From Eledone cirrhosa (lineage: Eukaryota), in assembly GCA_964016885.1 (NCBI GenBank), contig OZ024751.1, positions 21,452,001 through 21,516,000 on the forward strand: DNA of 64,000 bases. Direction: 5' to 3'. Positions 3,708-63,470 of this stretch are shown here, in pieces. A model generated the notes under the pieces. The model had not been told where the DNA came from and did not search any database. It saw only the letters and a list, made by a program, of their open reading frames with translations. Position 1 is the stretch's first letter. Each line of letters opens with the position of its first letter. The position numbers were made by a program, and so were the translations under genes.

Positions 3708-6700
3708 TTATCTCGGTGGAGATAATCCTATTTCGTAATGATCACGAAACAAGTATTCCTGCAGCCTTTTGAGATCATCAGCTGAATCAGTCATACTTCT
3801 GCCTCTATAACTAAAAATGTTTTTATGTTCTTCCTCCGAAAATATTACAGGTGGCAGATGCCTTCCGGCCAATTTACGTTCTCGAAGTATTTTTTCATCG
3901 CGCTCTCTTTGATAGGATGGATTCAGATATCTAAGCATTGTTTCATTACGCTCTATCACAGAATAATTGGTAGGTCTTTGTATTACATCATAAATATTTG
4001 AATCAATATTCGTTTGACTTCTAGAAATTCTTTCATTGCGCTCAGGCAAATCACTCTTAATACACCCCCTAAGTCTTTTTGATTTGCACTCATCACATAA
4101 TTCCTCGCTCATTTCACAATATTCATCAGCAGGACGTGATACAGTTGGGTGGTAATCCTTAAGATCTTCTTCGAATACCTCATCAACATTTTCTCTAAAT
4201 ACCACAGAAGGGATATCTGAAACAGTATTCGTTCGTCTTCTGGAAGTTGTACGTGAAACGATTGGCGTCCCACTTTCAGTAATCGTTCGTCTCTTAGGAA
4301 TCATACGTGGAATGTATGGGGGCTCTCTTTCAGCATTTCTGGCATTCCTTCGGTTTTTATGTTCTTTCAAAAGACATTCATGTTGCTCCACATCTGGAAT
4401 ATTACAACTGTAGTAAGAAGTGGAATATTTCTGTTCTCTACGTATTTTTTCATCGCGTTTTCTAAGAATCTTCTCCCATGGATTTTTTACAGGTAGAAAT
4501 TCATTCGAATCAGACAATGAATCTGCAATCTGTTTTCTAAATAGTTCCAAACGTTTCTGGCGTGTGATTTGATCCCAAACTCTCCAATAGTATTCGTCAT
4601 CGTCTCCTGCTAAAGTGTGCAGGCATAATTCGGGGTCTTCTTCTTCATAAAGTTCCTCAACTGTTTCTAAACAGGCAACAGGAGGTAACCTTTCCGAAAA
4701 AAATCTTGGTGGCACATATCTAGGGCACCATCCTTGTGCAACACGTTTTTCAAAACGTTTTTTATATATTTTTCGTGCCCTGTTATGAATATCTAAATCA
4801 GAAGTTTGATGATTTTCTGATTGCCTATCCCTCGATTTATTCCTAGGTCTTAACCATGGAATGTATAGCTGTTTTATTCCACTCTTCGCACGTCTTCTGG
4901 AACTTGCACGTGGAACGATTTCGCGTTCTCTTTCAGTATTTGGCCATCTAGAAGTTACGTTTGATAAGTTTGGAGGCTCTCCTTCAATATACGTTCGTCT
5001 TCTAGAATTTTCCTGTAGAAAATGTCGAGGCTGACATTCAGTGTTCGATCGTTTTCTAACAGTTACTAACTGTGGTAAGTGTCGAAGCGCTCCTTCAGTA
5101 TTCACTCGTCTTCTAGATGTTATATGTGGAATGTATTGATGGTTATTTAAGTACTCCACTTGACGCCTGGAAAATAAGGATTCACGAAATGCATGCGGTA
5201 ATGTTGAGGGTTCATTTGAAGTTCTCACTGCATGTTGAGGAAGTACATGCGGTATTGTTCGGGGCATTACGTGATTTCTAAGGTAGGTGTGCGGTAACAT
5301 TCGGGGTATTCTTGAAGGTCTCACTTGATCCCAAGGAATTGCGTACGGTATTCGTCGAGGTATTCTAGAAAGCTTCTCTTGATTTTTAGGCTTTGAAAGC
5401 AATCTTTCAGTTTGCTCTTGGTTTCTAGGAATTACATTCGCTATCCTTCGAGGTATTCTTGAAGGTCGCACTAGTTTATCAAGGGGAGGAGGATGTGGAG
5501 TTTTTGAGCGCATTCTTCCAATCCCCACTTGGTTTCTAGGAATTACATTAGCTAAACTTTGAGGTTTTCCTGAAGGCTGTACATGACTCTCAGGAGGAGG
5601 GCATGGCATTTTCGAGGGCAATCTTTCAGTCTCCACATGATTGTTAGGAATAAAATTTGTTAATCTTCGTAGTATTTCCAAAGGCCGCACTTGGGTCTCA
5701 TGCTGAGGAAGAGGAGGGCGTAGAATATTTGAGTTCATTCTTTCATTTTCTTCTGGATTTCTAGGAATTAGATTTTCTAATCTTCGTGGAAATCCTGAAG
5801 ACGGTAGTTGACTCTCAATACGAGGGGTAGGCGGAGGAGGAGGAGGAGGAGGAGGAGGAGGAGGAGGACGTGGAATTTTTGAACGCTTTCTTTCAATATC
5901 CTCTCGGTTTCTCGTAATTACATTCGATAATCTTTGAGGTAGTCCTGAAGGCCGTACTTGGCTCTCATGAGGGGGAGAAGAAGGAGTGCATGGAATTTTA
6001 GAGAGAATTCTTTCAGTCTCCACTTGGTTTCTATGAATTGCATTCGTTAATCTTCGGGGTATCCTCGAAGGCCGCACGTGGCTCTTAGGAGGGGGAGGAG
6101 GAGGGCGTGGCATTTTTGAGAGCATTCTTTCAGTCTCCAGTTGGTTTCTAGGAATTATATTCACAAATCTTCGGGGTATCTTCGAAGGCAGCACTTGAAT
6201 TTCCGATGAAGGGTGTGGAATGCTTAGGAGCATTGTTTCAATTCTCTCTGGACTTTTACTTGGCCAAGTATAGCGACGCATCCTTGTAACTGTTAATGAT
6301 CTAACGCGGGGTTTCTTGATTCCTGTTCGTGTCTCACCTTCCATTTGCTGTACCGAATCAGGTTCGATAGAGTTTATAGTTTCTTTCATGTCTGTCATAA
6401 CAAGACTTTTTGAACGAAATTTACCCGCTTTTTCTCGTTCCTTTCGAAATCTATTCGCATTTGCGAATAGTTCAGCCACTGTAAATTCTGGCATTTCAAC
6501 AAATCTCATTGGTGTTATATGTGATTTTGAGACCCAACGTGGTGATATATAAGCTATTTCCATAGGGTCTGATATTTCTTCTTCGAGTAAGATCTCTGAT
6601 TTAGTTTTTCTTCCCCGTGGGTTATCCCTTACCTGTTGCTCTAAATCAAATGGTCCCCTATCTGCCTCATAAATATCATCCATAGTATATTGTGGGACAG

Positions 6701-6785
6701 GATCTTCATAAAATGGTCTTACATATAATAAGTCTGCATCTCCTTGCCTTGTTTCGCAGTGAAAAGATTTATGCGCTGTTTTCAT
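3708..6785 (-). CDS. Uncharacterised 1025-aa Pro/Arg-rich, low-complexity repeat protein (single uninterrupted ORF)
   Basis: 3078-nt open frame in AT-rich DNA; about 8 degenerate ~40-aa repeats (VRPSRIPRRxxNVIPRNQxETERxxSKxPxPPP) and RRRTNTE-type repeats; no RT or transposase motifs seen. Confidence 0.75.
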   Translation of the reverse strand: MKTAHKSFHCETRQGDADLLYVRPFYEDPVPQYTMDDIYEADRGPFDLEQQVRDNPRGRKTKSEILLEEEISDPMEIAYISPRWVSKSHITPMRFVEMPEFTVAELFANANRFRKEREKAGKFRSKSLVMTDMKETINSIEPDSVQQMEGETRTGIKKPRVRSLTVTRMRRYTWPSKSPERIETMLLSIPHPSSEIQVLPSKIPRRFVNIIPRNQLETERMLSKMPRPPPPPPKSHVRPSRIPRRLTNAIHRNQVETERILSKIPCTPSSPPHESQVRPSGLPQRLSNVITRNREDIERKRSKIPRPPPPPPPPPPPPPTPRIESQLPSSGFPRRLENLIPRNPEENERMNSNILRPPLPQHETQVRPLEILRRLTNFIPNNHVETERLPSKMPCPPPESHVQPSGKPQSLANVIPRNQVGIGRMRSKTPHPPPLDKLVRPSRIPRRIANVIPRNQEQTERLLSKPKNQEKLSRIPRRIPYAIPWDQVRPSRIPRMLPHTYLRNHVMPRTIPHVLPQHAVRTSNEPSTLPHAFRESLFSRRQVEYLNNHQYIPHITSRRRVNTEGALRHLPQLVTVRKRSNTECQPRHFLQENSRRRTYIEGEPPNLSNVTSRWPNTEREREIVPRASSRRRAKSGIKQLYIPWLRPRNKSRDRQSENHQTSDLDIHNRARKIYKKRFEKRVAQGWCPRYVPPRFFSERLPPVACLETVEELYEEEDPELCLHTLAGDDDEYYWRVWDQITRQKRLELFRKQIADSLSDSNEFLPVKNPWEKILRKRDEKIRREQKYSTSYYSCNIPDVEQHECLLKEHKNRRNARNAEREPPYIPRMIPKRRTITESGTPIVSRTTSRRRTNTVSDIPSVVFRENVDEVFEEDLKDYHPTVSRPADEYCEMSEELCDECKSKRLRGCIKSDLPERNERISRSQTNIDSNIYDVIQRPTNYSVIERNETMLRYLNPSYQRERDEKILRERKLAGRHLPPVIFSEEEHKNIFSYRGRSMTDSADDLKRLQEYLFRDHYEIGLSPPR

Positions 6786-7044
6786 ATTCCCGTCAGAAAT
6801 ATCTCTATTTTCTTTTGTTCAGAAACTCTACAGAACTTCTTTTGTGATGTATATCCTATATTATTATATCAAAATGTTAATCAAAGTTGAAAATTTGTTA
6901 TGTAATGCAGATTCACTGAATTAATATCGTTCTGTTAATAATATACATGTTAATAATATAGATGTTAGTAATATATATTTCTCTTGTGTTTTTGTTCTCT
7001 GAGTCATTTTGATGTGGTTACTCTGCTTTCATAATTATATTAAA

Positions 7045-8597: not shown

Positions 8598-9355
<758 letters not shown>

Positions 9356-9842: not shown

Positions 9843-10097
9843 CATGGTATGGGTCGAACCGAGACTATAATAAATGACATTTGATGAAAATGTCACACAA
9901 TGATATCAAACCCGGGTCTTAAATAAACTTCTTAACTGCTCGGCCAAGCTAGGTCCTAATTGAACGTCCCTTAAGATCAAAGGTCTTCCAATAGTGACCC
10001 TCCTATCTTAATATACAGTATCAGGGTAGTATTTTGTTCAGCTCAAGTCAGCTCTGATTGAGCAGGCCTGTGCATTCCAGTCAAGATCATTTTGTCT

Positions 10098-10514
<417 letters not shown>

Positions 10515-12049
10515 TTCCCCCTTTTTTTTTACTGTAGAGTTAAAAGTTTGAGCTGTTAATTCTTGCATGTCGCGAAGCCGCGTAGCATAAGAGCAGCATA
10601 TAGTTAAGAGTATAAATTTTATATAGCTACTTACGTTTAACAGCCTATCTGAGATCCGGAAAGGGAATTTATGAAAATGCTGAACCCACAAAATATAATT
10701 CCAATATGACGTGAAAAGAATGGCGGTATATCACTTGGCGGGAATTATGGATGACGTCATAATTGCGGAAAAAGTTAGAACAGTTGTGAGTTCAAATACC
10801 ATCGAAGTCAACCAATTTTCTCATTTATCCTTATGGTAGGTGGCCAATTGGCAGTGACGATAGAATCATGATGTTTTATCATCATCATCATCATCATCAC
10901 TATTATTATTATAATTTCTTTATTATCTACAAGGGCTCAAATGCAGGATACAAAACAATAGGCGTTTAAATACATGTAATACCAACAATAAAAAATTCCC
11001 CAATACGGAATACACCGACTTCATTTCTTGACTGTTAGAATGGCGTGATTAGCTGACATTCCAGATGCCAGACACCAAGCTTAGGTTTGCAGCTTTGTCA
11101 AAGAGACGAGATGTGGGAGGGCGGGCCTAAGAAAAGATGACCCCCCCCCCACACACACACACACACAATCACACAATCACACACACACACACCATCTAGT
11201 AGTCTTTATATATGTTGCATAACGGGCACATGTCCACGCATTATCAGCCACAGCTTACCATGCTGGAGAACGAAAGTAAGAGAAGCACTTTCGCTCTTTA
11301 AAACATTTCTGGTTGGCTAGCTGGCTGGCTGGTTGGATGGTTGGATGGTTGGCTGGCGAGCAAGGATGACGCCATCTTTAAGATTAAGGAGGGGTTTTTT
11401 TTTTATAAAAAGAAAGAAAACACTTCAAAACTATTAAATTGACCGCATTACTGGTACTTTATTTTATCGACCTTGGAAGGATGAAAGAAAAAGTTAACCG
11501 GGATTTCAACTCAGAATGTAAAAGAAATATAATAAAATATAACAAAGTCCAACCGATAGGCCATTGAGAATATACCATTTATATGCTTAGTTTTTGATTT
11601 TCATACAACACATCTGGGGACAACTTAATTTATACGTGATAAATCTTAGACTATTTATATACACCTCAAAAGTTGCACATTAACCTGTAAAAAAAATCGA
11701 AATAACTATAATTTCTGTGATTACGCATTCCTGTGCTGGATTGTTCAACCAATTACGAATAGCATAATGTATATACATACATTACATACATATGCATACA
11801 TGTATGTATAGTCCCGCAACTCCCAAAGCTATATTAATATACAACGTTTCTATGGAATTTGTTAATCTGGCGGAACCTATTTCCTTTCTCCAGGTCTGAT
11901 TACAGCAGATTTATCCCAGAGAAGGATAGATAGTGAAAGAGAGAAAGGAAATGAGAAAGAGATATAGAGAATAGGAGATATAGAGAATAGGAGAATAGGA
12001 GATGGGAGATATAGAGACTAGGAGAATAGGAGATAGGAGAAGTAAGCAG

Positions 12050-23646: not shown

Positions 23647-24385
23647 TGGCTGCCAACTCGTTTTCGAGTACGGCCACTACTTTATATCCATGTAGGAGAA
23701 CCCCTACCGATGCGCTGAACGAATGTGACTTTTTAGTCCAGCCAGCGACTTGAAAACTCTGGTACAAAGACTACACTTGTGACCATTATTGACACATAGT
23801 GCAGGGCCCATGGTACCATGTGATGACAAGTGCAGAGAGATCTCCAGATATAAAGCAATGCCTGTGCTGTGAAGCTTTTATAGTGAGCAAAGGCACTGCA
23901 CAAAGCCAGTCCCACTCTCTTAACCAAGATGATATTTACCAAAAAGAAGAACAAGTCAACATCATTGGATACCATCAGGGTTGCAGGTGTTATATCAGAG
24001 TTTTCCTTCTCCTAGAATTCTGCCTTGACAAAGGCTAAGGGGTCATCTCTCCCGGTGATTTTGGATGGCTATTGAGTCTTAAGAGCTCCCTTGCCCTTTG
24101 ACAGGTTTTGTTTTTAGTCCTGCAGGATGTCCAAAGTCACCCTCCTCACCAAGAAACCTTGGTAGGGTTGCCAGTTTAGTCGCCAACGACCCGACCATGA
24201 GACAGGTTGTACTGGGATACATATATATATATATACACACACACATACATATACATATGTACGTATGGATTATATCAAACATTAATAATAATGTTAGACT
24301 CATTTGTAAACAAACGACCCCGGTTAGAAGCTGTGACTTGTCGGTGACCGGTCGTCATCTGCTTGTTCAACACTGGCTTTGAGGA

Positions 24386-24428
24386 ACAATCAACATGTTT
24401 CTGGGTCATTACCCTTCATCAGGATTGT
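24386..24428 (-). ncRNA. Minimal type-I hammerhead ribozyme motif (family F')
   Basis: ACAATC CTGATGA A GGGT aatg ACCC A GAA AC at GT T GATTGT: stem I, core, stem II, palindromic stem III. Confidence 0.8.
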
Positions 24429-25106
24429 ATACCTCTCTGTCACTGTTCAAAGGTTGAAAATATACATTATTTTCTTAAGTATACATCGCTACTCAGCCGA
24501 TGTATACTTAAGGAAAATTCTATATATTGTCAACCGCAGAATTTACAGAGTTTTGAATAAAATGAAATTGCTATATTTCTACGGGCTCAACTTTGTCTTT
24601 CATAATTTCAAGGTCAATAAAGTAAATCCAGTTCTGTTGGTGTTGACTGTTCCTATAATATCTCTGTCACTTTCTCTCACTCTCATTTCCTGGAAGAAAT
24701 CGGCTGCGTTCAGACTTGGAGAGGAGATTGGCTCCGGCAGGTTTATAATGCCCAAGAAACACTAGGGCGCCTCTACGCTTCCACGAGGAGCAACTGGAAA
24801 AAGCGAAACGAATATAGATGTATGAGCATAAAATGTGTTTAATGCGATAACGATGTTGATGAAGAGGAGTGTGTTGGAAAATAGTCATGGCAGTGGTAAA
24901 CAGAAATCGATTTCGCCTTTTACGCTTTTGAATTTGATACACTTTGCTTTGTTAAAAAAGTATGTGCGTGTGTACATTTGTCTTCGATATATATGTCTAT
25001 ACGTATATTTATATATATATACATATATATGTGTATACATATACATGTATGTATATATATATATGTAAACATATATGTATACATATATGCACATATATAT
25101 ATATGT

Positions 25107-25952
25107 AGGGCGGGTAAAATTCCCGAGATCCATGGACGAGTTCTCTCCAGCGGTCTCTGTCCCTCATCATCGCTGCCATGTCCTGCGTCTCCAAGAGACC
25201 TGTGTCTGTCCTTAGGGCATCAACATATGTTAACCTCAGTCTCCTTTTTCCAGTGTGTCCATGCAGGGGCTCCCACCGGAACACTGAGTGCAGTGTCAAC
25301 TCTGGATATCGGTGAGCATGTCCAGCTAACCTCAGTCTCCTCTGTCCTACTCTCGAGCTGACTTTTGGGAATCAGTGTATACTGATTAATGTTCAGAGCC
25401 ATCCTCAGCATTTTCGTATAGCAACCATCCACCAACTGAGTGAGTTTCTTGGTCAGTGTCAAAGTCTCAGACCCGTACAGCAGCACATACTCCACTAGAG
25501 CAACGAAGAGACAGATCTTCAGGTTTTTATCTTCAGGTGCGACTTCCAGACCGATCTCAAACTGTGGCATGCCGCCCAGGCTTTGCTTTTCCTCTCGACC
25601 ACATCATATTCCCAACCTTTGCTTCCCGTCTACATTAGTAATCTTCTCTGATTTCTTAATATTCTCTACCAGATACTTCGTCTCAATCTCATTCATTCTC
25701 AGCCCCACACTCATCGACACAGTCTCCACCTCCTGCATTAAATCCTCTTCCTCCTTCACTGTATTTGTCACCAAAACTATGTCGTCGGCAAATTCAGCAT
25801 CCGATATCTTTTTTGCTTTAACTCTCCTGCTCTGAGCCGGTGCTACAGTAAAGCCGGAGTCCTGGTGTTTCTCCAGCGCAAGGCGCATACAATAGTCCAC
25901 TACGATGATAAAAAGGTAGGGAGCCAATGTATCTCTATGGAGCACTCCAGCC
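25107..25952 (-). mobile_element. RTE-type LINE fragment (RT domain to 3' end), frameshifted
   Basis: GVLHRDTLAPYLFIIVVD..EFADDIVL, VLLYGSETLTLT..GCYTKMLRMALNI. Confidence 0.9.
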
Positions 25953-26369
25953 ATATATATATATGTGTGTGTGTGTGTATATATATAGAGAAGGGGGGTG
26001 AGACTGGAAATAGCATGGAAAACACTTTTAAGGGTCTGTTTCTCTTTATCTTTCTTTTTTTTCTTTTCCCTTCCTTGATATGTATGTGTGTATATATATA
26101 CAGAGAGAGAATGGGGAAAACATTCGACCGCGAAACCTAGCGGGTGCGGCTTGTATTCGGCAAGCCTTTTCAAATATATATACTGCAACCCTCGCACGTA
26201 ATCGACTTATTGGTATGCATTTAAAATATGTTCGCTGGGGGTTTTAGATGCCCATGTAGCCACGAGTAGATAGAGACAGAGGTGGAGAGAAAGAAAGAAC
26301 TAAAAGACCAGAAAGTCAGAACAAATATTCCAACATTCTATCGATTTTGTGAAATCAGCCGTCAGTAAT

Positions 26370-27455: not shown

Positions 27456-28134
27456 ACCAGAAAGAGAATCGATTCATGTCCTGAATTTACATAGAATATG
27501 CTGTAATAGTATCGCAATCGTCCGACATATGGTAGGTGGAGGTACGGGTTTTGCAGGCGAATGTCCTCTTTCTCCCGTCTCCAGAAGTTAAGTACCCAAT
27601 TTATTCAACTATTTTATAGTTAGCAATGTTGCACACGAAAACCAAACAAAACCCCCAGGTATTGTTGGTACTCAATTTCAGCTGAGTATACCGGAGCAAC
27701 GTAAAATGAAGCGTGTTGCTCAAGAACGCTACGCACAACCCAATAAAGAGGAGGGATAGTAAAAGATATCGCACTGGTAAGTAAACACTTAGTTAATCAA
27801 ACAAAGAGCGCGTAGCTTTGTAATAAATTACGAAATTAAGTGCGTTGTAACCGCTTTTCAAATTATTTCAATACTCTGTAAACAATGTTGTATACATTGT
27901 TTAAAACACACGTTATGCTCCAATTTCTACACATGAAAAGGCAACACAATTTAAGAGTTGATAGTATCAGGAAGTAAAATATTGCATCGTTCCCCAGTTC
28001 TTGGCAGTTGTTCACATGATCGGATCGTTTAGTCATGTATGTATGTATTTATTTATTTATGTATGTATGTAAGTATATATATATGTATGTATATATATAT
28101 GTACATATGTATGCATATATATATATATATATAT

Positions 28135-28348
28135 ATTAAAATAACAGATTAAAGTTTAAGCAAAGAATCGCTGCTTTCACCCTTAACGGGATCTTCTGAA
28201 ACTCCCGTTAAGGGTGAAAGTAGCGATTCTTTGCTTAAACTTTAATCTGTTATTTTAATAAATATTTGTTCTACGGTTCTTATATATTTGATATATATTT
28301 ATCCTTATCGAGCCCTCTTTGGATTTTAGTCTTCAATTTTATTATTAT

Positions 28349-28352
<4 letters not shown>
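28135..28352. mobile_element. Fold-back element family A in (TA)n, hammerhead-like fold at 28153-28203 (-)
   Basis: ~55-bp inverted arms; AGTTT CAGAAGA T CCC gttaa GGG T GAA AGCA..TGCT T AAACT; other copies at 36052, 36354, 48635. Confidence 0.78.
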
Positions 28353-28389
<37 letters not shown>

Positions 28390-35825: not shown

Positions 35826-36051
35826 TCTGTATGGATTCAGTTTGAAACTGGTTCATCCATTATTCACCAGAGTACTCGATACTTGGCGTAGTATAGTGGA
35901 GTATGGTTATATTATAAAGAGTCGGGACCCCGAAAGCTGACCTCTTGCTATTTCAACAACTGGTTTCAACAGCTAGGTCCAGCTGTTGAAACGGTAAGGG
36001 CTCAGCCGTCGTGGTCCCGACTCTTTTTAACAAACACACATACGTATATAC

Positions 36052-36311
36052 AGAAGATCCCGTAAGGGTTTAAAGCAGCGATTCTTTGCTTAAATTTTAA
36101 TAAATATTTGCTCTAGGGTTCTTATGTTTTTGATATATATTTATCCTTATCGAGCCCTCTTTGGATTCTAGCATAGTTACGTCCCTTTACAGTCTGAGTT
36201 CAAATCCCGCCGAGGTTAACTTTGCCTTTCATCCTTACGGGGTCGATAAAATAAAGTACCAGTAATGTACTGGTTAATTGCTGGCCTTGTGCCTAAAGTA
36301 GAAACAATTAT

Positions 36312-36357
<46 letters not shown>

Positions 36358-36500
36358 ATAATAATAAATTTGAAGACTAAAATCCAAAGAGGGCTCGATA
36401 AGGATAAATATATATCAAATATATAAGAACCGTAGAGCAAATATTTATTAAAATAACAGATTAAAGTTTGCTTAAACTTTAATCTGTTATTTTAATAAAT
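36052..36500. mobile_element. Cluster: family A copy, SINE 3' half (36169-36313), second family A copy
   Basis: Matches to 28135-28352 and to the SINE consensus. Confidence 0.75.
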
Positions 36501-36502
36501 AA

Positions 36503-41640: not shown

Positions 41641-41707
41641 TATTTTATCTGATGAGGACGTACTGTTGAAGTTAGCTCAGTACCTCTGAAATATGTATAA
41701 TAAAATA
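41641..41707 (+). ncRNA. Type-I hammerhead motif (family H) between (TA)n tracts
   Basis: TATTTTAT CTGATGA ..GTACTG..CAGTAC.. GAA ATATGTAT A ATAAAATA; 8-bp stem I. Confidence 0.72.
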
Positions 41708-45202: not shown

Positions 45203-45400
45203 TTAATATAGATGAGATTCTACAAGACTAGAACTGTTTCATTCATTAGAAATCATCAGGAATCTCCTGATTCCTGATGATTTCTAATGAATGAAACAGT
45301 TCTAGTCCTGTAGAATCTCATCTATATTAAAACTGTTATACTCTGCTATGTATTGAGTACCTTACTTACTGTGGTTACCTCCGATTCAACCCGGAATAAC

Positions 45401-48095: not shown

Positions 48096-48634
48096 ATTAG
48101 TATTTCCCAGTGCTTAATAGCAATACGGATGTTTGTATGAATTATAAAGAGAAGACGTCCAAACACAACGCTTTAGAGGACACCACAAACGTCTGATGTT
48201 GTGTTTGGGTGGACTACCTGATCACAGCGCACTTGGTCTTGTTTAACAAGCAACACTTAATCCACTGCACCATTCGCTTACGAATTCCAATGTTGGAAAG
48301 TTTTTTTTTATTTTTATTTTGTTTTTATTTTCAACATCAGGCTGTGATCGATTCTATCGTTGGCCTTGCTGGAGTCAAGGTATATGATCTTTGTTAGAAC
48401 GTTCCCCAGCACAAATGATTTTAAATGTCACTCAAATGATGTTGAAACTCTGTTTAGCAATGTTATCTGACACATTGAAAGATATATTAGTTTCGTGGGG
48501 ATTTATGCGATTATGACTCCCCAGGCAAAACAAGCAACTTGTATTCGCCCATATATATTTTTTATTCATATAAATACAGCGCTTTTGTTCCGTGTATGTA
48601 TGAACATAAATAAATAATATGAAATATATATATA

Positions 48635-48868
48635 TAGTAATAATAATAAATTTGAAGACTAAAATCCAAAGAGGGCTCGATAAGGATAAATATATATCAA
48701 ATATATAAGAACCGTAGAGCAAATATTTATTAAAATAACAGATTAAAGTTTCAGCAAAGAATCGCTGCTTTCACCCTTAACGGGATCTTCTGTTAGTTTC
48801 AGAAGATCTCGTTAAGAGTGAAAGCAGCGATTCTTTGCTGAAACTTTAATGTGTTATTTTAATAAATA
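48635..48868 (-). mobile_element. Fold-back element family A in (TA)n
   Basis: Inverted arms centred near 48795; tail matches 28260-28352. Confidence 0.8.
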
Positions 48869-49034
48869 TATATATATATATATATATGTATATGCATAAA
48901 TATATATATTTTATATATATGTTTATGCATATATATATATGTTATATATATATATATATATAGTGAAAGAGTGAAGAATAACATGGTCAACAATACAAAA
49001 GGGTTTTATTACAGTATTAACAATTGTTTCATAT

Positions 49035-52241: not shown

Positions 52242-52477
52242 TATACAATATACAATGATATTAAATAAATGGAAACTATATTTATAAAACCATAATTATT
52301 TTATTATATATATTTCAAGGGCAACCAAGGCAGTCTTGGTGCGCTTTCATCAGATTAAATACAAAATTTGTTTTATAAATAGTGACATAGCCATGGAAAA
52401 CAACCTATATATTCAAATAACAGATTAAAGTTTAAGCAAAGAATCGCTGCTATCACCATTAACAGGAAAAAACAAAA

Positions 52478-52927: not shown

Positions 52928-53174
52928 ACGTTAGGTTATATTGGAGTTTACCAATATATGTCCTGGTAAAGATTATAGAAGCTTAATGCTAATCAGTATC
53001 ATTGGTCAATCAGTAACCCAAAAGGCAGAATAATTTTTCAACCTCTGGAGATTACGTTTTGGACTCTTATGAATTCCAGAATTCCAGAAATAATCAGGAT
53101 CTGATTATATAGAGCGATTGCTGGTCCAGCAAAAATTAGGAATTAGTATTGGTGCTCTAAAATAGCGATGTATA

Positions 53175-53479
53175 CATGAATGTATGTATAGTATATTTGG
53201 CAATATACTTTATGTTTAATTAAAAACATTTTGAAGACCATTCGCTATGAGTTTTAAAGTAGTGACTAATCTATAAGAATCCAGTTTCTATAAGGCAGCG
53301 GAGTGTGTGGTCTTGATAAACGCTAACAAGTGAGAAACAGACTGTCTGTCGATCACTCTCCGTTGTTTTTACCGAGAATAAGTAAGTGATGTAGTCACTA
53401 CTTTAAAACTCGTAGCTAATGGTCTTCAAAATGTTTTTAATGAAACATACAGTATATTGCCAAATATACTATACATACA

Positions 53480-53484
<5 letters not shown>
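53175..53484 (+). mobile_element. Fold-back element family E with hammerhead in spacer at 53295-53366
   Basis: ~94-bp inverted arms; GTGGTC TTGATAA A CGCT aaca AGTG A GAA ACAGAC t GTCTGT C GATCAC; ends in (TA)n. Confidence 0.8.
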
Positions 53485-53548
<64 letters not shown>

Positions 53549-53747
53549 GGAAAAAATGAAACGACATTTCATTTCTCACTCTTAGTACGGCTGTTACTTA
53601 AATATAAGTATGTACACGTACATACATATATGTATACAGACGTACAGTAGTATGTATATATATATATATACATACATGCACACATATATATATATATGTA
53701 CGTATGGATTCACCGAACATTTATTATAATGCTCGGTGTGTTTGTAA

Positions 53748-54156
53748 ACAAACATCCCGAATTAAGCCGTACAGTGTCCAGCAACCATCGTTGCTCATTT
53801 GTTCAACACTGACAAAGGAACGCTGTACTAGTTTCAAGCTTATTAGCTATCGTCAGCAACGTATACCTTTCTGCCAGATGATTGAACGTCTGAAAGTATA
53901 TACTTTCCTTATACATATTAACGGCTGAGCAGCCTAATTTGCAGATCGAGTGAGTTAATCGGCCGGGCGCACCGAAAACGATAAACGGAAAAAATGAAAC
54001 GAAATTTACTTTCAGATGTTCAATCATCTGGCAGGAAGGTATACGTTGCTGACGATAGCTAATAAGCTTGAAACTAGTACAGCGTTCCTTTGTCAGTGTT
54101 GAACAAATGAGCAACGATGGTTGCTAGACACTGTACGGCTTAATTCGGGATGTTTG
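53748..54156 (+). mobile_element. Fold-back element family F with hammerheads in both arms (53820-53862 -, 54043-54085 +)
   Basis: ~150-bp inverted arms; ACGTTG CTGACGA T AGCT aata AGCT T GAA AC ta GT A CAGCGT; ends in (TG)n. Confidence 0.86.
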
Positions 54157-54453
54157 TGTGTGTATGTGTGTGTATATGTTTGTCTGTCTGTCTCTGTGTG
54201 TGTGTGTGTGTGTGTGTGTGTAACATAGTTGTTCTATTGTCGGTGATCAATTTCAACAAAGTCACCTTTCTATTGGAAATTGATAAGTGTTGAATTATTG
54301 GAATTCTCTTTCTGCTCCCCCCCCCCACCCCTCTCTCTCTCTCTCTCTCTCTCTTTCTTTCTCTCTTTCTCTCTCTCTCTCTCTCACTCCCTTTCTCCCT
54401 CTCTCTCTCTTTCTTTCTCTCTTTCTCCCTCTCTCCCTCTCTGTATTTCCCTC

Positions 54454-58013: not shown

Positions 58014-58373
58014 AAAATACATATATATTGATTTATTATGCCTACGTAGTGAGTCTTACTGTGGAATTTCACTTACGTACTCGCAGGATCATCCATCATC
58101 TTGTTTGTGATCCCGCGAGTGCCTAGGTGAAACTCCAGAATAACAAGACACACAACTTAGTCATAATAAATGAATATTTAAACTCTACTTCGGTATTGAG
58201 TACTCTTTTTCTCATCAGTTAACTACATACGGTTATAGAGATGATCCCGCTTTAGACTGAAAGCAGGAATCGTTTTTTAAATATTTAATCTTTGCTAATA
58301 ATATGTTTTTACTCTACGGGTTTATATATACTTATATATATATATATGATATCACTGATTCTCTTTATTTCTG

Positions 58374-62099: not shown

Positions 62100-63470
62100 T
62101 TAGACACGAATTTTATTGAACTATTTAGAATTTTATCTCGTACCCATTCTATACTGCATTTATGCCTTGCTCTAAGTTTGAGACACCACTAGGATTCTTA
62201 ATTATCTGTTGTACATTCGTATCGTCAGCACAGCTAATGCAAATACCTGTTCATATAACCGAGAGCATGTGGCACCCCACTCAGAATTAACTGAGGACAT
62301 GTCTACGAGATCCATTGCAAACAACAGTGGTCTCAAGACAGTTCCATGTGGTACCCCACTCAGAATCAATGGACATGTCTGAGAGACCCACTTCGAACAA
62401 CAGTGGTCTCAAGACAGTTCCATGTGGTACCACACTCAGAATCAATGGACATGTCTGAGAGACCCACTTCGAACAACAGTGGTCCCAAGACAGTTCCATG
62501 TGGTACCCCATACAGAATCAATGGACATGTCTGCGAGAGCCACTTCGAACAACAGTGGTCTCAAGAAAGTTCCATGTGGTACCCCACTCAGAATCAATGG
62601 ACATGTCTGAGAGACCCACTTCGAACAACAGTGGTCTCAAGACAGTTCCATGTGGTACCACACTCAGAATCAATGGACATGTCTGAGAGACCCACTTCGA
62701 ACAACAGTGGTCCCAAGACAGTTCCATGTGGTACCCCATACAGAATCAATGGACATGTCTGCGAGAGCCACTTCGAACAACAGTGGTCTCAAGACAGTTC
62801 CATGTGGTACCACACTCAGAATCAATGGATATGTCTGCGAGAGCCACTTCAAACAACAGTGGTCCCAACACAGTTCCATGTGGTACCACACTCAGAATCA
62901 ATGGACATGTCTGAGAGACCCACTTCGAACAACAGTGGTCCCAAGACAGTTCCATGTGGTACCCCATACAGAATCAATGGACATGTCTGCGAGAGCCACT
63001 TCGAACAACAGTGGTCCCAAGACAGTTCCATGTGGTACCCCACTCAGAATCAATGGACATGTCTGAGAGAGCCACTTCAAACAACAGTGGTCCCAAGACA
63101 GTTCCATGTGGTACCCCATTCAGAATCAATGGACATGTCTGAGAGACCCACTTTAAACAACAGTGGTCCCAAGACAGTTCCATGTGGTACCCCACTCAGA
63201 ATCAATGGACATGTCTGAGAGACCCACTTTAAACAACAGTGGTCTGAAGACAGTTCCATGTGGCACCCCACTCAGAACCAACTTTTCCTTTGCAAGAATA
63301 CCATTGGCTATAACTTAAAATGTCACAGTCATTCTCTTCCTATTTTTCCAACTATATTAAGATCACGCTATTTGTTACAAACTATTCTATCTTCAATGTT
63401 ATCAAAGGACTTCATAAATCCGAGATATATTACATCCATATTTGACTGGTTAAACCTCTGTTTCCCCACC
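62100..63470 (-). mobile_element. Decayed CR1/L2-like LINE RT fragment hosting the 76-bp satellite
   Basis: Minus strand order: MDVIYLGFMKSFD..VIANG..VLSGVPHGTVLGPLLF (repeated)..CADDTNVQQII, i.e. consecutive RT motifs. Confidence 0.8.
62267..63277. repeat. 76-bp tandem repeat x13 with 228-bp higher-order period
   Basis: atgtggtaccccactcagaatcaatggacatgtctgagagacccacttcgaacaacagtggtctcaagacagttcc; variants recur every third unit. Confidence 0.97.

Follow-up and report, generated by a model that had tools for sequence, protein, structure and literature searches.

The 64-kb stretch of DNA analyzed here (the window) carries two related hammerhead sequences, F and F′, whose helices differ in sequence while still pairing. 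This locus raises the question of whether the RNA structure is under selection, and of what kind of element carries it and how that element moves. The window sequence places F hammerhead cores at 53856 (minus strand) and 54049 (plus strand), and an F′ core at 24422 (minus strand). The F motif is ACGTTG CTGACGA T AGCT AATA AGCT T GAAA CTAG TA CAGCGT, with the predicted cleavage triplet GUA, whereas the F′ motif is ACAATC CTGATGA A GGGT AATG ACCC A GAAA CATG TT GATTGT, with the triplet GUU. Both have the core CUGANGA / GAAA / UH and three helices with helix I open, which makes them type I hammerheads. A sequence-only reading had placed the same motifs at the same sites, with the predicted F cut after the GUA at 54077-54079, and all of these assignments hold. 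A hammerhead descriptor scan found nine type I motifs in the window and none in any of 50 shuffles; the Rfam hammerhead models gave no match in the window at the gathering score.

Homology between F and F′ extends past the ribozyme, with 69% identity over 288 nt. The two F copies are arranged as an inverted repeat of 154 nt (97% complementary, 4 mismatches), and it is this inverted pair, rather than a tandem, that occupies the coordinates given in the sequence-only reading. The features of the locus are as follows.

53543..54013, minus strand: main arm of the F1 retrozyme, made up of a 438-nt unit and terminal redundancy; its 3′ end at 53543 abuts (TA)n
53814..53870, minus strand: type I hammerhead of the F1 main arm, including distal helix I; predicted cut 53826/53825
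54004..54157, plus strand: inverted, head-to-head second F arm (unit positions 113-266), with 4 mismatches relative to the main arm
54035..54091, plus strand: type I hammerhead of the inverted F arm; predicted cut after GUA 54077-54079
53483..53545, strand not applicable: (TA)n target microsatellite at the main-arm 3′ end
53981..54013, strand not applicable: 33-nt direct repeat of 53543-53575 (91%)
24217..24488, minus strand: F′ retrozyme arm, partial, of an older family with a unit of ∼370 bp
24380..24436, minus strand: F′ type I hammerhead, predicted to be cut after GUU (24392/24391)
24489..24536, plus strand: short inverted, head-to-head F′ arm, 90% over 48 nt relative to the F′ unit of locus L050

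The main arm exceeds one unit because 53981..54013 repeats 53543-53575. The second F arm lacks its 3′ part, and a TG-rich repeat comes next. The folding z-score of the main arm is −6.64, to which TA-rich hairpins contribute part, and the 2-kb bins around F have 29-43% GC. The window locus is most likely a passive, decaying insertion.

Several other sequences lie close to these arms. A degraded inverted pair at 53095-53492, 78-82% related to the 310-bp retrozyme of family H, directly adjoins F, and family H arrays also adjoin F at two other loci (L022 and L092). Outside the hammerhead, a hairpin with an AT-rich 6-nt loop (53716-53743 and 24265-24300, both minus strand) keeps its pairing between F and F′. 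In the F version, an AATAAA that may be a poly(A) or promoter signal overlaps the loop. Beside this hairpin, the conserved TTTGTTTACAAA resembles a forkhead site.

To compare the two elements, 17 pairs were scored in a gapless frame fixed by the core: six in helix I, four in helix II, three in helix III counted as a dimer, and four in distal helix I. There are 14 substitutions at paired positions, and all of them form seven double compensatory changes that keep pairing. When 14 random substitutions were placed, none of 200,000 simulations kept all 17 pairs. Covariation had been called full in the sequence-only reading. Every helix does covary, but 10 of the 17 pairs are unchanged, and the base at stem I position 4 of the window F′ copy is a minority variant (A, as in 3 of 29 other F′ copies, versus G, a G·U wobble, in 24). 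The helix III change consists of the central 2 nt, which pair in the dimer only. The flanks gtatacct, aggaac, and ttgttcaacactg, formerly regarded as shared sequence apart from the helices, belong instead to helix I, as its distal part and as an extension beyond a 3/1 internal loop. Distal helix I holds one more compensated pair (AAGG/CCTT versus GAGG/CCTC).

A similar pattern is seen in a seven-row alignment of F, F′ (two rows), subfamilies F2 and F3, and the related families G and H, which represent about five lineages. In these natural copies both partners have changed in 13 of the 18 pairs and 94.4% of the cells pair, whereas slid registers pair at only 35-50%. The observed pairing was reached in 0 of 500 shuffles, although the relatedness of the copies inflates this control. 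The core, reported as kept between the two elements, is invariant in 7/7 aligned copies, the core itself having been the anchor for their selection. The pair 10.1-11.1 is not formed in F1, F2, and H (U·U) or in F′ (A·A), and is C-G in F3 and G-C in G; the U·U of F or A·A of F′ weakens helix II.

These counts support the earlier proposal that selection has acted on the hammerhead structure. Selection probably worked on source lineages rather than on the window copies, since F′ copies are mutated at 11 of the 319 core positions read, versus 255 of 4,153 flank positions; most copies now appear to be decaying. The covariation is real and statistically strong. The ribozyme class in which it occurs is already known, as is the element class, and in such a ribozyme it is expected.

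The identity of that element was missed by the sequence-only reading. F and F′ are subfamilies of a noncoding, often tandem, non-LTR retrozyme repeat. In the 3.0-Gb genome, where the window lies at G000:C11:21452001-21516000, the F motif GAAACNNGTHNNNNGTTCCT has 32,616 matches versus 22 for a reversed control, and the ACATGT-type motif has 678 versus 10. Tandem copies with a hammerhead in each unit are frequent genome-wide; the window holds one unit and an inverted arm. Units are 422-426 bp in one array (7+2 units), 484-502 bp in another, and ∼370 bp in F′. No plausible ORF of at least 170 aa was found within the F unit. In the array of 422-426 bp units, six full units differ in microsatellite length and at seven point columns, each private to one unit. 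This pattern would fit repeated copying of one template, and a homogeneous source array could also produce it. We rejected a hammerhead-like motif on the antisense strand of F (CAGATGA...GAAA GTATATAC), which lacks stem I and is not retained in F2.

Hammerhead motifs are abundant in this genome. Forty evenly chosen stretches of 10 kb were specified, one of which proved nonexistent, and the remaining 39 contain 22 intact hammerhead motifs of several families, compared with one motif in 10 shuffles of the set. Extrapolation gives a genome total of ∼170,000 motifs (Poisson range 106,000-256,000, with clustering ignored), a number comparable to what has been reported for axolotl (126,247), whose genome is much larger. 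The window itself contains further types. Hammerhead motifs in which helix II is long and the inserts of helix III alternate between A and T (TATGTA, TATATA) lie at 41649 (plus), 58503 (minus), and 52353 (minus); they belong to other repeat families that are common in the random sample too, and a first reading of the TATATA type as a pseudo-LTR (pLTR) of Hydra-clade Penelope-like elements (PLEs) was dropped. Another family, with a longer helix III (CAGTTCTAGTCCTG) and U·U at the base of helix II, is found at 45274 (plus), 45259 (minus), and 59023 (minus), the first two forming a head-to-head pair. The window also holds a 1,036-codon stop-free frame with proline-rich repeats (3711-6818, minus), a 307-codon stop-free frame built of a long tandem repeat (62295-63215, plus), and fragments that by eye resemble the endonuclease or reverse transcriptase (RT) of non-LTR retrotransposons (8605-9153, plus; 25607-26206, minus; 10041-10730, minus).

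The closest known relatives are the metazoan non-LTR retrozymes, among them HHR_Amex1 and HHR_Amex2 of axolotl (Cervera and de la Pena 2020, PMC7229834), which like F are noncoding tandem repeats with a canonical type I hammerhead. HHR_Amex1 shares with F a one-pair helix III and palindromic tetraloop, and HHR_Amex2 the U·U at the base of helix II. Metazoan retrozymes also resemble F in having <50% GC and in co-occurring with PLEs. The F unit, at 422-502 bp, is at or above the range of 150-450 bp given for them in PMC7229834. That paper describes expressed linear and circular monomer RNA. PLE-type head-to-head arms, two preferred (TA)n ends, and a PLE chimera are found for F (see below), and the sections of PMC7229834 consulted report none of these. 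According to PMC4209133, the canonical metazoan hammerhead has a 6-bp helix I, a 4-bp helix II, and a helix III of one to two pairs with a palindromic loop, a form that F fits.

Helix III inserts are palindromic in five of six family groups: ACTAGT (F and G), ACATGT (F′), ACGCGT, AGTACT, and ATGCAT (one copy); the sixth carries AGAACT/AGGACT. At a chance of 1/4 per group this gives p ∼0.005, for a grouping that is our own and families that are partly dependent. An F2 tandem array (G000:C1:319893984-319896443, L165-L168) has changed its palindrome from ACTAGT to ACATGT in 4/4 matched copies, but in F as a whole only 4/9 loci (7/12 copies) at which both central bases have changed are palindromic. 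Constrained to the double-hammerhead form, a natural tandem reaches −182.3 kcal/mol, versus −175.0 kcal/mol as two monomers; its unconstrained fold, at −188.6 kcal/mol, is 6 kcal/mol below the dimer form. Dimeric cleavage, which had been suggested from the palindromic stem III, is likely in tandem arrays elsewhere in the genome because the palindrome is kept in five of six groups and tandem arrays exist. At the window locus, however, it is impossible in cis because the two F copies are inverted and on opposite strands. Read-through RNA of this locus would hold one sense and one antisense copy, with predicted arm-with-arm pairing and a predicted stem I probability of 0.0 for either strand. Dimeric cleavage has already been described for this hammerhead class (PMC4209133; PMC7229834) and is reviewed in PMC6765202.

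Insertions preserve a record of how the repeat moves. Insertion loci were picked by similarity or motif, and overlapping ones were dropped. A typical insertion has two head-to-head arms with scattered 5′ ends, and many arms are longer than one unit. At 53 loci there are two preferred 3′ end positions, 59 nt apart, at which 25/28 and 26/30 of the noncontinuing ends join (TA)n; some F arms end away from both. The partial tandems, inverted 5′-truncated copy, terminal extension, and (TA)n target that we find are the insertion architecture described for PLEs (PMC8557442). In particular, Hydra-clade PLEs (Craig et al. 2021, PMC8557442) have the same (TA)n target, partial tandems, and inverted 5′-truncated copy, with a terminal extension at one end, but F, unlike them, encodes no protein. 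The offset between the preferred ends, 59 nt in F, compares with 30-40 bp for the PLE tail in that paper. Nonautonomous Chlamys elements such as MRC1 likewise form PLE-type, multicopy head-to-tail insertions (PMC8557442). In contrast to F, they generally share 3′ sequence with an autonomous partner, and most Chlamys elements, as that source describes them, lack canonical hammerheads.

Neither preferred 3′ end is the cleavage site. A pile-up of 5′ ends there, the expected footprint of in vivo cleavage, was not found when junctions were counted genome-wide against a control site. At the cleavage site, 28 of the 57 matches with altered bases just 5′ of the cut are true junctions, versus 26,141 intact copies; at the control site the figures are 17 of 23 and 15,900. 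Both junction rates are 0.107%, based on classification by hand with one or two ambiguous cases each. Cut linear monomers are thus not the template, since breaks are not in excess at the cleavage site. The template would be a religated circle or an uncleaved multimer, and the lack of cleavage-site breaks fits both equally.

The second of these templates leads to a different account of the family, in which a PLE-mobilized repeat is copied from uncleaved linear multimers, no circles form, and the hammerhead cuts rarely, trims precursors, or works as a protein-helped monomer. This account draws, besides the junction counts, on the U·U or A·A at the base of helix II, on the poor cleavage of PLE-type hammerheads in vitro (PMC4209133), and on the cleavage of only one of nine Xenopus retrozyme dimers (bioRxiv 10.64898/2026.07.22.740005). 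We consider it unlikely. The compensatory changes in all helices, together with the invariant core across lineages, argue that catalysis matters for propagation; the private changes of array units are as expected from one template read repeatedly; and axolotl motifs of similar form undergo cleavage as dimers and yield circles (PMC7229834).

A PLE family (28,127 first-look candidates, 150 scored) was reached by way of RT fragments that lie next to F copies. Several copies of this young family have 713-aa open frames (L185, L190, and L191) in which RWR, DKT, CxCx5C, CxxC, and CxH motifs and a C-terminal endonuclease were read by eye. The Hydra clade is defined by an RWK-like motif, DKT, a CxCx5C linker, CxxC and CxH, a C-terminal GIY-YIG, and a (TA)n target (PMC8557442), and judged by these motifs the 713-aa family matches the definition. 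Pfam gave no significant match for three fragments. Naiad was rejected as the partner, as the endonuclease is C-terminal with Hydra motifs. The 3′ ends of the young family have two preferred positions on (TA)n, with ∼32 and 15 of 62 motif matches when overlapping loci are kept. Its pLTR contains a hammerhead unrelated to those of F and has no sequence in common with F. TA runs lie between this family and its F1 and F2 neighbors, an arrangement that shared targeting alone explains.

Fragments of the 3′ end of the young Hydra-type PLE also occur in the window (28129-28354, 36051-36501, 48634-48869, 52406-52467, and 58239-58341); several are inverted pairs, and they are up to 98-100% identical to L190. 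The Hydra-type pLTR (L190, L185, L191; G000:C3:235112195-235115701 and others) carries a hammerhead-like motif with the variant core CAGAAGA, in which A replaces U4. This putative hammerhead has a long helix III and is constant across copies.

A more direct connection is recorded at L118, where an F′ arm is joined head-to-head, across a 1-nt gap and with no TA run, to a 5′-truncated Hydra-type RT arm that continues to its own hammerhead and (TA)n. The RT belongs to another Hydra-type family, with 45% protein identity to the young one. We infer that this chimera arose in one insertion event that used two templates. At L111 there is a colinear junction between degraded F′ and a Hydra-type linker and endonuclease. 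Thus the 60 F′-selected loci include one clear F′/Hydra junction (L118) and one weaker (L111). Autonomous PLEs co-exist in the genome with the retrozyme repeat. A partial literature search, confined to main texts, turned up no report of chimeric retrozyme/PLE insertions or of a cleavage-site junction test.

Another view takes F and F′ to be only solo or tandem pseudo-LTRs, as 5′-truncated 3′ ends of an unsampled autonomous PLE that do not replicate independently. The insertion architecture is the same as that of PLEs (PMC8557442), some PLE variants have a helix III that is small and palindromic (PMC4209133), and bioRxiv 10.64898/2026.07.22.740005 derives retrozymes from pLTRs. The pLTR hammerheads of PLEs (Cervera and de la Pena 2014, PMC4209133) further resemble those of F in being type I, with a palindromic helix III, predicted dimers, and many compensatory changes, and some form opposite-strand pairs 100-700 bp apart. 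However, F differs from them in its canonical helices of 6 and 4 bp, which are not the minimal PLE form, and in having neither the conserved G10.1-C11.1 pair nor a linked ORF. Upstream of a full F unit comes the unit again rather than an ORF, and among the loci examined there is none in which a PLE ORF runs on into an F-type hammerhead. None of L048, L026, L080, L082, and L083 supports F or F′ as a pLTR: in the near cases L026, L048, and L080, 1.0-2.3 kb lie between ORF and hammerhead, and the gap in L048 and L080 consists of unrelated repeats or the PLE's own 3′ end. An autonomous parent with an F-type pLTR, with an RT and GIY-YIG ORF running into an F-type repeat, was absent from the ∼0.95 Mb read of the 3.0-Gb genome. 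On this evidence a pLTR identity is improbable.

It is very unlikely that a spliceosomal intron of 58 nt, from AG|GT at 54039 to the AG at 54096, encloses the hammerhead and removes it by splicing: GT...YAG is present in F1, F2, and F′, and PLEs carry introns beside their hammerhead (PMC4209133), but both "splice sites" are paired parts of extended helix I, an F3 copy lacks the GT and family G the AG, and the spliced junction has no match in the genome, though PLEs are known to retain introns. The proposed joint was also absent from contigs of four sequencing runs of unrecorded kind, with X4-X6, which have only 10-12 contigs each, left out of account.

We therefore return to F and F′ as retrozymes that probably cleave themselves as dimers, form circles, and are copied into (TA)n by the enzymes of Hydra-clade PLEs, which we regard as the probable explanation. 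In this scheme, tandem source arrays would be transcribed, and the RNA would cleave through a 6-bp helix III formed between neighboring palindromes. The monomer would then be ligated into a circle of ∼370-500 nt, perhaps by RtcB, by analogy with PMC7229834. A Hydra-clade PLE would supply the RT and GIY-YIG endonuclease; nicked (TA)n DNA would prime on UA-rich RNA ends, rolling-circle reverse transcription would proceed through the religated site, and the two arms would be joined at their 5′ ends. Cleavage, expression, and circles are postulated in this scheme; what the genome shows is the motif, its covariation, the copies and their ends, the ORFs, and the chimera.

PLEs have been proposed in PMC7229834 as candidate mobilizers of retrozymes, with circles as templates, and bioRxiv 10.64898/2026.07.22.740005 argues for a PLE origin of retrozymes from co-occurrence and pLTR trees; both leave the mechanism open. 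What the present locus and its relatives add is not the covariation but genomic evidence, in the form of an insertion record, on how a retrozyme moves. That record comprises over 32,000 copies, 3′ ends fixed at positions other than the cleavage site, arms exceeding one unit, intact Hydra-type ORFs, and a chimera, and it opens the partner as well as the circular template to testing. The chances are slightly better than even that this genome directly records how animal retrozymes are copied: from religated RNA circles, by rolling-circle reverse transcription with Hydra-clade PLE enzymes, both nicked target strands priming separate arms. If so, an arm from a PLE and an arm from a retrozyme can be part of a single insertion, and the ∼170,000 hammerhead motifs in many families would constitute a natural test bed for a step that has hitherto only been hypothesized.
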